Positions 28,925 to 31,869 of a stretch of 64,000 bases of DNA are shown here, in pieces (within the stretch, counting starts at the first letter, position 1; the number at the start of each line of letters is the position of its first letter). The stretch comes from Candidatus Woesearchaeota archaeon (lineage in GTDB: Archaea; Nanobdellota; Nanobdellia; Woesearchaeales; ARS49), in contig QZIM01000002.1 in the NCBI GenBank assembly GCA_003599055.1, positions 517 through 64,516 of the forward strand, in the 5' to 3' direction. The translations under genes were made by a program, and so were the position numbers. The notes under the pieces were generated by a model. The model made no database searches, was not told the origin of the DNA, and saw only the letters and a list, made by a program, of their open reading frames with translations.

Positions 28925-29233
28925 TTATTCGTTTGGTTCGTAGAACGGGCGTGCATTGCGCTCGTGGTACTTTTCAGGGACGTCGCAAAGGAAGCCAAGG
29001 TGCAGTCCCTCGCTGCTTTCCAAATAGAGCAGGATGCGGTTGTGGTGTGCATACGCGCCGACAACGGGGTAGTAGTCGCAGAGTTCTTCAATTGCGCCTC
29101 TGCGGTTTCGCGCATCATAATGGAAGAGTGCCTCAATGGTGAGCCGCGTGATGAATTGGAGGTCATCTCCGGTAAGGATGCGCAAATCAAGCATAGTGTC
29201 AAGGGGGGTGTCAGGGTGGTGTTCGTGTGTCAT
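28925..29233 (-). CDS. hypothetical protein downstream of the MSDERLRELER genes
   Basis: ATG 29233 abuts the stop of the upstream gene (29230-29232). No family recognised. Confidence 0.45.
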   Translation of the reverse strand: MTHEHHPDTPLDTMLDLRILTGDDLQFITRLTIEALFHYDARNRRGAIEELCDYYPVVGAYAHHNRILLYLESSEGLHLGFLCDVPEKYHERNARPFYEPNE

Positions 29234-30171
29234 GGGTTTTCCCACTGCCACGCGCCGGTTTTGCGCGGGGCGTAGTGTTCGGGGAGTTGGCGGAGCTTAT
29301 TAAGGGTTGTGACCGGGGCTTCAACAATGAGGGTGTCGCCGCGGTCAGTGTGGGCGCTGATGAGGTCTGAAGGTCCGCCGGCACGGTTGTTCGGGATGGC
29401 AAGCCTGCTGGTTTTTGGAATGCAAAGAGGGGTGCTGCGAAGGTTCAGGACTGTTTGCTCAAGGGATGTCGGGTCGTTGTACTCGCGCCAATTTCCCGGG
29501 ATTTCGTAGTATACTTTTTGGTCTTCGATGACAACGTTGCCGGCAAGCAAGGGGGACGGGTGGTCGGATGTTCCGGTGACGTTAAGAATAATTTGTCCTT
29601 CAACGTGAAAAACGCTGACTCCGCGAAAGCGGTCAAGGAAGCGCAAGGGTGCGTCTCCGCCAACCCAGACGGCGTGACTGCAGGAGACTTTGCGCGTTCC
29701 GCAGGATGGGTATGCTTCTGCGGCTGCGTAGTGGTCAGTGCAGGTGACGGGAACGCAGTGTGCGCGCGGGCGAACGCGGGACTGTTCGCCGATGGTGATT
29801 TCTTTTTCGTCATCAATGACGAAGAAGCTTTTGCCGCAGGAGAGGACGTGCGCGCGTCCGCGGGTTGCAAATGAGCGCGAAAAGGTTCGCGTGCCTCCTT
29901 CATAGGTGGTGAGGATTGTTGTGTCGGGCTCGCGTTCAATTGTGATAAATCCCGTCCAGGCATAAGGGTCTCGCCGCTCAATTTCTGCACGGGCTTCAGG
30001 GTTTTCCGGGTCGCGCAAAAGAAGGGCCCGCAGGTTCCGGATGGCTTCTTCCCGAACGGCGGCAGCATCAGCAGTCTTTCCCGTGCGCTCGTATTCGCGT
30101 TCGAGACGTTGCCGCGCGGAAGAATCATTTGCTGCGCACCGTTCCAGTTCGCGAAGCCGCTCATCGCTCAT
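29230..30171 (-). CDS. MSDERLRELER-leader family protein, paralogue 1
   Basis: 313 aa. N-terminus MSDERLRELERC. The body is homologous to paralogue 2 (DPYAWTGF/DPLAYTGW, VIEDQKVYY/LIEDDAVWY, IPKTSRL/IPTKSRL, LNKLRQL/LEALRQM). Confidence 0.6.
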   Translation of the reverse strand: MSDERLRELERCAANDSSARQRLEREYERTGKTADAAAVREEAIRNLRALLLRDPENPEARAEIERRDPYAWTGFITIEREPDTTILTTYEGGTRTFSRSFATRGRAHVLSCGKSFFVIDDEKEITIGEQSRVRPRAHCVPVTCTDHYAAAEAYPSCGTRKVSCSHAVWVGGDAPLRFLDRFRGVSVFHVEGQIILNVTGTSDHPSPLLAGNVVIEDQKVYYEIPGNWREYNDPTSLEQTVLNLRSTPLCIPKTSRLAIPNNRAGGPSDLISAHTDRGDTLIVEAPVTTLNKLRQLPEHYAPRKTGAWQWENP

Positions 30172-31076
30172 TGTTCGCGCCTCATTTGCCGCAGTGCCTC
30201 AAGGCAGTGAAGGTCGAACTCAACTGCGGTGATGTTTCCTGCGCTTCCAAGGATGCCAAGGTCGTAGGGGCTTGCGGCAATATTGCAGCGCCGTCCGAGC
30301 CTGCTTTTTGTCGGGATGCGTGTCGCGCCCGAACTGGTTAAGAGGGTGATTGCGTCTGAGCGCTCGTTTTTTGTCGGACAGAGGAATTGGTTGGGGAGGA
30401 GGACAGGCGCATACCAGACTGCATCGTCTTCGATGAGGTAGGGGTGGGTGGTGTGGTAATCAGTTCCCGGCCTTTCGGCGATGCGGATGAGGTTTTGTAT
30501 GGTTCTCGTGCTGGTTATTTTTCCGGGGCTGAGGTGTTCGGGAAGCCCTTCGGTGTTTGGGAGAGGAATGGGGCTTGGATTCTCTGCCAAGCGAAGGTGG
30601 TGTCCGATATCTGGTGTCCAGGAGCGGAAAAGGAGCTGTTTGTTGTGGTGGTCTGCGATTGCTTCAAATGAGGGCGCGCTTCGGCCGTGTTTTCCGGGTG
30701 TTTGCGGGATGGTTTGCTGGACAAAATCCTGCGTTATGAGGTGCAGGTGACTGTTAACGTATGCCATATTTTCAATGGGTGTGCTGTCGCAAAGGTCATC
30801 AAGGGGGATGCGGTAGTCTTCGTCTCCGTCAAGCACGCGGATGGCAAGGGGTCCTTCGCGAAGGGCCCATCCGGTGTATGCAAGGGGGTCGTGTTCTAAC
30901 AAGTATGCGAGTGTTCGCGTGTCATTTCTTTGGTTTCGCAGGCGCGTATTGGCAAGTTTGGATGCGTCGTGTTTTCGCCCGCCGCGCTCAAGCGCGGAAA
31001 GGTAGGAAAAGAAGTCATCATCTGCCCCCGTTTCCTGCCATTTTCGCTCAAGTTCGCGCAGTCGTTCGTCACTCAT
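30168..31076 (-). CDS. MSDERLRELER-leader family protein, paralogue 2
   Basis: 302 aa. The first 17 codons are nucleotide-identical to those of 31342-31869. ATGA overlap with paralogue 1. Confidence 0.6.
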   Translation of the reverse strand: MSDERLRELERKWQETGADDDFFSYLSALERGGRKHDASKLANTRLRNQRNDTRTLAYLLEHDPLAYTGWALREGPLAIRVLDGDEDYRIPLDDLCDSTPIENMAYVNSHLHLITQDFVQQTIPQTPGKHGRSAPSFEAIADHHNKQLLFRSWTPDIGHHLRLAENPSPIPLPNTEGLPEHLSPGKITSTRTIQNLIRIAERPGTDYHTTHPYLIEDDAVWYAPVLLPNQFLCPTKNERSDAITLLTSSGATRIPTKSRLGRRCNIAASPYDLGILGSAGNITAVEFDLHCLEALRQMRREQ

Positions 31077-31208
31077 CGCGCACCTTTTCCAACTTGCAGC
31101 GTATTTTCCGCAAGCTTTCCAAGATCAGCAGTGATCATTCCAATTTTATAGTCGGCAGGTTCAAAAAGCGAGGAAATAGAAGCAAGCGTGCCGATGCAAG
31201 TCGGCAAC

Positions 31209-31327
31209 GCCGGGGTGTGCCGAACCCGGTAAGGCAACGGTCTGAACAGCCGTCGCTCGTAAGAGCAGTCAGGGTTCAAAAACCTTGCGGTTGTTTGATC
31301 GTAGGATTGAATCTCCCTGCCCCGGCG
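31209..31327 (+). tRNA. elaborated tRNA-like gene A (class-II/Ser-like body, anticodon loop CTGAACA = GAA, 119 nt)
   Basis: Acceptor GCCGGGG/CCCCGGC with discriminator G. D loop AACCCGGTA is shared with tRNA-Ser. Anticodon arm ACGGT-CTGAACA-GCCGT. Extra hairpin GCTC-GTAA-GAGC. T stem CAGGG/CCCTG encloses 40 nt rather than 7. A T-run follows. Confidence 0.55.
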
Positions 31328-31341
31328 TCTTTTTTTATTCC

Positions 31342-31869
31342 TCATTGAAGCCTCATCCTGAGCCGATCGTCGTCAAATTTAGTTTGGGTGGTGATGCAAA
31401 GGTCAAAGAGGGCGGTGTTAAGTGTTCCCTTGATGCGGTGGTCGATGTTGCAATACGCGTCCCATTGTCCTCCTTCATGTGGGGGGAACCCAGTCACGGT
31501 AAATGCGGCAAGGTGCTCGCGCAGGTAGTCTGCGATGACTTCGTGGTTCCATTCTGCGCCGCAAAGGAGCAGGTCAATATCCTGATAGTTTTTTCGCGCA
31601 ACTGCGCTTCCAATCAGGTATTTAATGGTGTCATCAGGGAGGACGTCAAGGAGTCGTTCAAGAGCCTGTGCATCTTCCGGTTTTAGAGGTGAGAGGGGAA
31701 GGTATTCGATGCGTAACTCGGGCTTTTCGGCAAGAAGGGGTTGGTACACGCGCGCAATATCTTCAAAGCGGTCTGCACGTTCAAGCCCGTGTGCATAGGC
31801 GAGCCGATCTGCTGCCGCGCCCGTTTCCTGCCATTTTCGCTCAAGTTCGCGCAGTCGTTCGTCACTCAT
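31342..31869 (-). CDS. MSDERLRELER-leader fused to a minimal nucleotidyltransferase (Pol-beta superfamily) domain
   Basis: Start at ATG 31869. LIGSAVARKNYQDIDLLL matches the hG[GS]-x8-13-DhDh NTase signature. Confidence 0.65.
   Translation of the reverse strand: MSDERLRELERKWQETGAAADRLAYAHGLERADRFEDIARVYQPLLAEKPELRIEYLPLSPLKPEDAQALERLLDVLPDDTIKYLIGSAVARKNYQDIDLLLCGAEWNHEVIADYLREHLAAFTVTGFPPHEGGQWDAYCNIDHRIKGTLNTALFDLCITTQTKFDDDRLRMRLQ

Follow-up and report, generated by a model that had tools for sequence, protein, structure and literature searches.

The 64,000-nt window analyzed here belongs to a contig of 145.6 kb from the metagenome-assembled genome (MAG) of a Candidatus Woesearchaeota archaeon. 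It carries three consecutive minus-strand genes (P1, P2, and P3) whose products all start with the leader MSDERLRELER, as well as two tRNA genes (A and B) on the plus strand (Table 1). The three leader genes had been claimed in an earlier reading of the window (hereafter, the original prediction) and were borne out by the list of open reading frames (ORFs). The leader defines a protein family that is real, unannotated, and dynamic. The reading that we favor, and to which we give an even chance of being correct, is that a diversifying array of gene cassettes with an adaptor-like leader begins at this locus, and that the tRNA genes travel as part of a repeat module. The theme itself, in which variable effector cassettes share an adaptor or leader, is known; new here is the undescribed leader family. 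DPANN archaea live in obligate partnership with other microbes, and to our knowledge almost nothing is known about the proteins that they use in microbial interactions. The unannotated family described here shows three traits that are typical of interaction or conflict genes, namely a leader shared between Woesearchaeota and Planctomycetota, long tandem arrays, and cassette swaps between strains that are 97%–99% identical. Its tie to unusual tRNA genes is intriguing but unproven.

The leader family and the exchange of its cassettes

Leader proteins were surveyed in two rounds, first with a pattern in a single genome of each species and then with a motif. Tandem leader arrays were found in Woesearchaeota RIFCSPLOWO2_12_FULL_46_25 (loci L002 and L003), where two overlapping stretches of one contig jointly hold >20 leader genes. 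Runs of 9–14 consecutive leader genes were observed in L002 and L014 and a run of at least six in L004, with further leader genes in L003, L008, and L010. The L004 array lies on a contig that was binned as Methanosarcinales, together with the M50 protease–signal peptidase synteny of Woesearchaeota. In both L004 and L007 (CAYXXT01 contigs, labelled uncultured Methanosarcinales), the gene order is M50 protease, signal peptidase, leader array. Their encoded proteins are close to those of Woesearchaeota loci, and these two contigs are probably mis-binned Woesearchaeota DNA. In Planctomycetota, one or two leader copies per locus were found in three MAGs (L005, L006, and L009), with leader identities of 64%–76%.

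When the first 45 residues were removed from the 41 distinct leader proteins, the remaining bodies fell into clusters of 12 and 8 members, two pairs, and 17 singletons. The 12-member cluster includes P1, P2, and a 359-aa protein of locus L001, and the 8-member cluster includes P3. One body is a leucine-rich repeat (LRR) domain. Ser/Thr kinases and a methyltransferase are also encoded inside the arrays, without the leader. The original prediction had described P1 and P2 as full-length paralogs. The kinship of their bodies stood, through the 12-member family, but BLASTP aligned the two proteins across their first ~75 residues only (E 7e-6). The P1 and P2 bodies are 20%–25% identical and are united in this family only via intermediates and shared motifs (DPxAWTG, ED, IPxxSRL, and E.P...L..LR in a 9-sequence alignment). 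Judged by these sequences, P1 and P2 are distant paralogs.

The profile searches to which the original prediction had referred the three bodies and the 102-aa ORF downstream of P2 were run and gave no matches. Neither the leader, nor the three bodies, nor many of their relatives matched any family in Pfam, NCBIfam, or PADLOC, the 102-aa ORF had zero family matches in the same three collections, and sequence and profile searches of the PDB returned no match. Word-indexed homolog searches retrieved only the query itself, its paralog, the strain variant P0003, and P0012. The repeat-companion domain TIGR02996, a planctomycete N-terminal domain paired with LRRs, was considered as a candidate for the leader and was rejected, as an NCBIfam scan of 19 leader proteins, Planctomycetota and LRR-bodied ones included, gave no match to this profile. 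In AlphaFold2 (AF2) models of P1 and P3, confident helices were predicted at residues 3–16, 19–31, and 35–48, and the leader had a predicted local distance difference test score (pLDDT) of 80–95 in both proteins. Of note, a 221-aa leader protein (L003 6836–7501) gave a very weak NCBIfam match to the GNAT domain of an IleRS fusion (E 0.023), for which Pfam and PDB provided no support.

At the DNA level, the leader starts of P1 and P3 are identical over 48 of 48 nt, and a further 45 nt upstream are near-identical. This shared stretch points to a recent gene conversion between P1 and P3. The P2 leader is only 76% identical to them in DNA but still encodes the 11 residues unchanged, which indicates selection on the leader peptide itself. 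The starts of P1 and P3 belong to two copies of a 183-nt repeat that are 84% identical, with synonymous sites identical across the first 16 leader codons; the similarity continues into the tRNA genes (31272–31334 vs 32062–32124). A leader identity that partly reflects gene conversion would be expected if the common N-terminus resulted from recent tandem duplication only, and if the locus combined ordinary tRNAs and a lineage-specific hypothetical family in a compact genome, with no functional link between them. The codon usage of the three genes is also ordinary, as it did not differ significantly from that of the rest of the window. However, the leader peptide has been kept despite the synonymous divergence of P2 and across phyla, and duplication alone cannot account for a common N-terminus on unrelated bodies. 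We therefore consider it very unlikely that no functional link exists; the tRNA evidence that bears on this point is given below.

Many array genes end with the codons for G-A-R (or GAQ or GAK) and overlap the next ATG by ATGA. Such gene ends are located at L001 7073, at L002 1988, 3829, and 6004, at L004 4356 and 9698, and elsewhere. The C-terminus of the preceding protein is thus imprinted by the conserved DNA upstream of the leader (GGnGCnCGATGA), which likely includes the ribosome-binding site. In addition, a hairpin of 6–7 bp lies inside the repeat, directly 5′ of both tRNA genes (31186–31206 and 31982–32002). Its stems are GTGCCGA-loop-TCGGCAC at tRNA B and TGCCGA-loop-TCGGCA at tRNA A, and it is absent upstream of the L011 tRNA copy.

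Comparison with a closely related strain revealed a cassette swap. The only close homolog of P1 (P0003) is encoded on the 11.3-kb Logan contig L001, whose flanks are 99.3% and 97.5% identical to the window (blastn). Within the strain-variable segment, the nucleotidyltransferase (NTase)-like gene P3 and tRNA A are replaced in L001 by the gene of the 359-aa protein, which has the leader MTDERIRKTER and a P1/P2-type body. tRNA A is absent from L001 and swaps jointly with the NTase-like gene. The first two thirds of P1 show ~74% DNA identity between the two strains, the N-terminal part being 61% identical, and P2 is ~98% identical. One breakpoint of the swap falls at the leader, the other within the body of P1. 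Three variants of another segment were also found, with the order 221 aa-226 aa-kinase in L003 (6836–9392), 221 aa-tRNA(GAG)-226 aa in L030 (40–1642), and 221 aa-tRNA-kinase in L037 (4401–6213), where the 221-aa and 226-aa proteins are close paralogs. These comparisons show that cassettes are exchanged by recombination within the repeat of leader, promoter, and tRNA. The L001 swap and the L003/L030/L037 variants identify the arrays as hotspots of cassette shuffling.

According to the favored reading, every member of the family combines a predicted N-terminal three-helix bundle of ~30–50 residues (M-S/T-D-E-R-L-R-x-L-E-R...) with one of many unrelated bodies, among them the beta-rich P1/P2 type, the Pol-beta-NTase-like type, LRR, and numerous orphans. 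The leader may be a non-enzymatic docking or adaptor domain, analogous to effector-associated domains (EADs), through which different effector-like bodies would meet a shared partner or one another. Copies of GAA/GAG tRNAs would be carried inside the array within a ~310-nt module (tRNA, divergent promoter, leader start), which would punctuate the transcription units and provide homology for shuffling. The tRNAs would not be substrates of the NTase-like protein, and the NTase-like body would represent one fast-evolving cassette type, with a triad that is intact in the window and lost in most relatives.

EADs, known from NTP-dependent bacterial conflict systems, are small, non-enzymatic, mostly alpha-helical terminal domains that are fused to diverse effectors or signaling domains (Kaur, Burroughs, Iyer, Aravind 2020, eLife; PMC7159879). 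The trait of a small terminal domain on diverse domains in adjacent genes is present in the leader family, which also shares with EADs the helical character of this domain, lineage-specific clusters of paralogs, and an occurrence in Planctomycetes. Unlike the EADs, the leader genes form much longer arrays (10–25 genes), and they do so in DPANN archaea.

A constant N-terminus with a variable C-terminus, tandem arrays, and strain-level cassette replacement would also be expected of an exported repertoire. In this case, the leader would be an N-terminal targeting signal for secretion or cell-to-cell transfer by episymbiotic archaea, and the array a polymorphic arsenal of NTase-, LRR-, and kinase-like effectors against hosts or competitors. 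The effector-like LRR, the NTase fold, and the Ser/Thr kinases within the arrays are consistent with such a role, as is the position of the arrays, which always begin beside signal peptidase I and the M50 protease. By inspection of the sequence, helices 1 and 2 are joined by a turn with a W-x3-G motif, which might loosely resemble helical-hairpin secretion substrates. In contrast, the leader is highly charged and has neither a hydrophobic core nor a twin-arginine motif, the loci showed no gene for a secretion ATPase or a pore, and profile scans detected no recognizable toxin or immunity domains. Moreover, the array kinases and the methyltransferase lack the leader, and the Planctomycetota copies are solitary. 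Export of the leader proteins is thus decidedly unlikely in our judgment.

Three further candidates were rejected. Tandem precursors of ribosomally synthesized and post-translationally modified peptides (RiPPs; NHLP/Nif11; PMC2887384) and polymorphic toxin cassettes likewise combine a constant leader with a hypervariable C-terminus in many tandem copies. In contrast to these systems, the bodies here are large folded domains of 130–350 residues instead of short core peptides, and profile scans gave no matches to maturase, toxin, or immunity families. A mobile-element origin was rejected because there were no viral, plasmid, or phage relatives and no compositional anomaly: the leader and tRNA patterns had no matches in viral contigs, P3 had none in plasmids or phages, and a composition scan of the window showed no anomaly at the locus.

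The nucleotidyltransferase-like protein P3

The segment LIGSAVARKNYQDIDLLL of P3 contains G87-S88-x8-D97-I-D99, and the GS-x8-DID motif attributed to the third gene by the original prediction is thus present. A HMMER scan of 1.84 billion representatives returned nine proteins at E ≤ 1e-3, the query among them. Only P0004 is a full-length relative (55% identical). Six others share just the first 75–100 residues and a C-terminal R-x-R-L tail with P3, and the ninth match, P0010, is a TPR-like protein of 1,199 aa.

The AF2 model of P3 (8-sequence alignment; pLDDT 88.8, predicted TM-score 0.83) comprises five helices (residues 1–76), a strand at residues 82–86 (IKYLI), G87-S88, a helix at residues 88–91, and a strand at residues 98–103 with D97/D99. 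A motif of the hG[GS] type that ends strand 1 and is followed by a short helix is therefore present in the model. All 50 matches listed by Foldseek against the PDB were NTase folds of the Pol-beta superfamily. These matches had E-values of at least 0.014 and TM-scores of 0.25–0.41, many with probabilities of 0.8–0.97, and included CC-/CCA-adding enzymes (at the top), poly(A) polymerases, Pol beta/lambda, terminal uridylyltransferases (TUTases), CD-NTases, SpoT, and MenT1. The NTP_transf sequence profiles did not match any of the eight NTase-family members at E-values up to 10. With regard to the minimal-NTase identity claimed originally, assignment of P3 to the Pol-beta NTase fold is plausible, given the predicted fold and the weak Foldseek matches, but membership by sequence profile is not borne out.

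The DxD motif is kept in P3 and P0004 and reads DIE in P0007, with AID, VIR, LEI, LSI, or LDL in the others. D143 and D156 are candidates for the third carboxylate, and both are kept in P0004, as placed by the alignment and the model. The columns that are invariant across the NTase family are located in the helical N-terminal part. In the family alignment, the candidate catalytic residues are thus intact in P3 but degenerate in most homologs. Given its intact candidate residues, nucleotidyltransferase activity of the modeled P3 is possible; it is not a property of the family.

With the minimal Pol-beta NTases (HEPN-MNT, AbiEii/MenT, and class I CCA-adding enzymes), P3 shares the predicted order of strand b1, G-S, helix, and strand b2, with D-x-D on b2. 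It differs from them by the lack of profile membership, by the 76-residue helical domain that precedes the fold, and by the loss of the catalytic acids in most relatives. Furthermore, no antitoxin, MenA, AbiEi, or HEPN partner and no defense-family match was detected among its neighbors (Pfam, NCBIfam, PADLOC), which are tRNA genes and leader-family genes.

Intron-containing tRNA genes and their linkage to the array

The two tRNA-like genes beside P3 are located essentially as originally described; in our parsing, they lie 14 nt and 131 nt from P3. By sequence, both are cloverleaf tRNA genes with a canonical predicted bulge-helix-bulge (BHB) intron at position 59/60. Gene A has the acceptor stem GCCGGGG/CCCCGGC, G73, the variable arm GCUC-GUAA-GAGC, and the anticodon loop CUGAACA (GAA at 31244–31246), and its predicted intron spans 31281–31313. 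Gene B is tRNA-Asp-like, with the loop UUGUCAC (GUC at 32035–32037), G73, the same acceptor stem as A, the variable arm UCCC-GUAA-GGGA, and a predicted intron at 32071–32103. It is kept in L001 with a single change in the T stem, from G-C to G-U. B conforms to the canon of the anticodon loop (U33, purine 37), A has C37, and C33 or C37 is present in other array copies.

Both genes score below the gathering threshold of the Rfam tRNA model (29 bits), with 25.8 bits for B and 18.7 bits for A, because of the T-loop insertion, which was aligned as 34 nt in A. No other Rfam family covers A or B, and ARAGORN called only B, as a truncated tRNA-Asp. In the related loci, neither ARAGORN nor Rfam at the gathering score reported tRNAs. 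A third copy lies on the 1.1-kb contig L011, and further copies were found by a motif search (in L002 and L003) and with an nhmmer profile. A pattern scan of metagenome contigs yielded 33 loci, and nhmmer with subsequent parsing gave at least 32 distinct genes, whose 7-bp acceptor stem (GCCGGGG/CCCCGGC; 7/7 pairs) and G73 were imposed by the search pattern.

All 32 relatives have a D arm, a variable arm of 4–5 bp that is mostly GNRA-capped, and a T-loop insertion. The anticodon stem is fully paired (5/5) in 30 of them, with 21 variants, and the T stem in 31 of them, with seven covarying variants. The insertion follows the motif helix(5)-bulge(3)-helix(4: UUCA/UGAA)-bulge(3)-helix. The central helix is paired 4/4 in 29/32 genes, the outer helix at least 4/5 in 28/32, and both bulges are 3 nt long. 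In A, the outer helix has 4/5 pairs, and in B it has 4 bp with a 4-nt 5′ bulge. If each bulge is cut behind its second nucleotide, as in the canonical 37/38 intron, excision removes 33 nt from A and B, and all 32 relatives are left with UUCAAAU as their predicted mature T loop. The variable arm was also considered as a second intron. No bulge-helix-bulge could be drawn around it, and it was provisionally treated as a retained arm.

The anticodons among the relatives are GAA, GAG, GAU, CAG, CAA, CUC, GUC, GCA, GCG, and ACC, and the class-II-like variable arm is present on every relative irrespective of the anticodon (Phe, Ile, Asp, Glu, Cys, Arg, Leu). Most relatives (25/32) are found in loci that lack leader genes. 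Their neighbors there are unrelated to each other and, read by sequence, look like housekeeping genes (for example, histidyl-tRNA-synthetase-like, family-B DNA-polymerase-like, and NUDIX-like). This architecture thus characterizes the lineage rather than the array module. The view that the RNAs are special decoys is not sustained by this ordinary, lineage-type architecture and the housekeeping contexts.

Archaeal tRNA genes with non-canonical BHB introns have been reviewed previously (PMC4090602, PMC4033280). The genes described here resemble them in the cloverleaf with the 5-3-4-3 helix/bulge motif and in that excision would restore a 7-nt T loop. They differ in that the relatives add a class-II-like arm and G73 for any anticodon, and in that the T-loop intron of one subfamily can pair with the anticodon arm. 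Anticodons of class I amino acids also occur together with a long variable arm in the nev-tRNAs of nematodes, which are class II tRNAs with a V-arm but with anticodons other than those for Leu and Ser (PMC3333845). In contrast to those, the present genes are from another domain of life and have the 59/60 intron.

In the subfamily that includes A, B, L012, L019, L027, L035, and L038, the intron in the T loop has a loop of its own that is complementary to the anticodon loop and the 5′ strand of its stem. The paired spans are 31281–31313 vs 31237–31249 in A and 32071–32103 vs 32028–32040 in B, with up to 12/12 pairs. The intron covaries with the anticodon (GAA with UUC/UUU, CAG with CUG, GAG with CUU), the duplexes with the own intron rank 0–3 of 32, and an own-vs-other permutation gave p 0.0016. 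Such predicted complementarity to the anticodon arm is unusual for a T-arm intron.

For DPANN genomes, numerous disrupted tRNA genes, undetected ones included, and incomplete tRNA predictions have been reported (PMC5829648). Since the present set is largely missed by standard finders, it bears on these apparently incomplete tRNA sets. It also raises the questions whether some members are not ordinary decoders and whether charging follows the V-arm and G73 (Ser-like) or normal decoding. Of note, the window contains two tRNA genes with canonical anticodon-loop introns, a Leu(CAG)-like one (14616–14712) and Ser(CGA) (53727–53822), which Rfam finds and ARAGORN misses. The variable arm UCC-GCAA-GGA and G73 of the latter resemble the family with the 59/60 intron.

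Where the sequence downstream of a leader gene was long enough to judge, a convergent tRNA gene follows 4/8 NTase-family genes vs 1/30 other leader genes (Fisher p 0.004, a value that overstates independence, as the pairs may share ancestry). The linked pairs are those of the window, L011 (P0004), L002 (P0008), and L003 (P0005), at spacings of 14–26 nt; the L011 tRNA lies 23 nt downstream of P0004. The neighborhood survey thus upholds the linkage of NTase homologs, including the closest one, to tRNA genes of the same type. Except in B, the anticodon of the array-embedded tRNAs is always GAA or GAG. C33 or C37 occurs in 5/7 array tRNAs vs 5/25 elsewhere (p 0.019). The possibility that the array tRNAs supply its own codons was rejected as unsupported, because Leu CUY usage was 77% vs 61% (p 0.06) and the use of Phe and Asp codons was alike.

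This linkage is what a tRNA-directed module would predict, in which the NTase-fold leader protein nucleotidylates or sequesters the adjacent or bulk tRNA and the co-inherited tRNA serves as substrate, decoy, or antidote. It is further consistent with the C33/C37 residues of array tRNAs, which are maybe not ordinary decoders, with their restriction to GAA/GAG, with the strain variability of tRNA A, and with the position of GS...DID on b1/b2 of a confident model for which CC-/CCA-adding enzymes ranked first and MenT1 was listed. On the other hand, DxD is degenerate in two of the four linked homologs (AID and LEI) as well as in most of the family, and Foldseek matches at E of at least 0.014 and TM-scores of 0.3–0.4 do not favor tRNA enzymes over poly(A) polymerases, Pol beta, or CD-NTases. 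The lack of matches to NTP_transf profiles and to PADLOC, and the lack of an antitoxin-like partner, also argue against such a module. In addition, tRNAs likewise follow 255-aa and (in L030) 221-aa non-NTase leader genes, the four linked pairs may stem from one ancestral pair, and tRNAs of the same build are mostly housekeeping-linked. From the tRNA-directed conflict module of the original prediction, the NTase–tRNA linkage has thus been retained, but the function has not. No result identifies the tRNAs as targets of P3, and a tRNA-directed toxin is weakly supported. We regard a tRNA-directed module as unlikely.

Tight spacing as such is not specific to the arrays, as tRNAs of this type sit 4–26 nt from the stops of many unrelated convergent genes, in agreement with the absence of any functional link between tRNAs and leader genes. 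The enrichment after NTase-family genes and the restriction to GAA/GAG are nevertheless non-random.

Several observations weigh against the favored reading of a cassette array with an adaptor-like leader. In contrast to EAD systems, the leader was found on no core NTPase, vWA-MoxR, or GTPase protein in the window or in L001–L011, and it matched neither a Pfam EAD nor any other profile. Membership in an EAD system is not claimed, because no core component carrying the leader was found. No function can be assigned to any of the bodies; that of P1 was modeled with an unusable pLDDT of 48. Finally, neither the tRNA enrichment of 4/8 vs 1/30 nor the frequency of C33/C37 in array tRNAs is predicted by a purely structural role of the tRNAs. 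A bolder combination would accommodate these last two points. The NTase-fold leader proteins and the array tRNAs (V-arm, G73, GAA/GAG, C33/C37) might form a co-inherited protein–RNA pair within an adaptor-coupled effector arsenal of DPANN archaea. The protein would mark, cap, or sequester a non-decoding tRNA, or a host tRNA with the resident copy as antidote, and the leader would dock this and dozens of other bodies onto a common machine. We consider this combination distinctly unlikely.

Genes and coordinates of the locus

The features of the locus are compiled in Table 1. The archaeal signal peptidase I gene directly precedes the start of the leader-gene array in three genomes, and the same neighbor is present in L001, L003, and L004. 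Downstream of it, P1, P2, and the 102-aa ORF are coupled by ATGA: P1 and P2 overlap at 30168–30171, as originally claimed, and the ATG of the 102-aa ORF overlaps the TGA of P2 (29230–29232). This ORF is kept in strain L001 and absent behind the P2 homolog in L002.

Table 1. Coordinates of genes, repeats, and variable segments around the leader genes (window numbering).
Feature	Position	Strand	Description
102-aa ORF	28925–29233	minus	ATG at 29233; 108 aa if GTG at 29251 is used
P2	29230–30171	minus	313 aa; leader and distant paralog of the P1 body
P1	30168–31076	minus	302 aa; leader and ~240-aa beta-rich body of the P1/P2 family; NCBI tag C4580_00195, hypothetical protein
Strain-variable segment	30458–31830		NTase-like gene, tRNA A, and first two thirds of P1
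Repeat module copy 1	31024–31206		First 53 nt of P1 leader and 130-nt divergent intergenic region to tRNA A
tRNA gene A	31209–31327	plus	Ends 14 nt from the P3 stop codon
P3	31342–31869	minus	175 aa; leader and helical extension (residues 1–76), then Pol-beta-NTase-like alpha/beta domain (predicted); NCBI tag C4580_00205, hypothetical protein
P3 residues			G87-S88, D97-x-D99; candidate third carboxylate D143 or D156
Repeat module copy 2	31817–31999		P3 leader start and intergenic region to tRNA B
tRNA gene B	32001–32117	plus	Starts 131 nt from the P3 ATG
Signal peptidase I, archaeal	32167–32754	minus	NCBIfam sigpep_I_arch, E 1.7e-12
M50 protease	32972–34111		Forms the conserved array-start flank with signal peptidase I

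Two further observations were made downstream of the 102-aa ORF. At ~27262–27470 on the minus strand, an ORF containing KKWGNSTGVTIPKALL resembles, by eye, an antitoxin of the SpoVT/AbrB type. In L001 (10720–11302), an AbrB-like ORF is followed by a PIN-domain gene. The identity between the window and L001 stops at window position 27267, and the PIN partner is seemingly missing or replaced in the window. Between the AbrB-like ORF and the 102-aa ORF (27521–28898, minus strand), the operon of P1, P2, and the 102-aa ORF apparently extends into genes for a 129-aa zinc-ribbon protein, MsrB, and a 203-aa protein, with gaps or overlaps of ≤26 nt and a gene order that is kept in L001.

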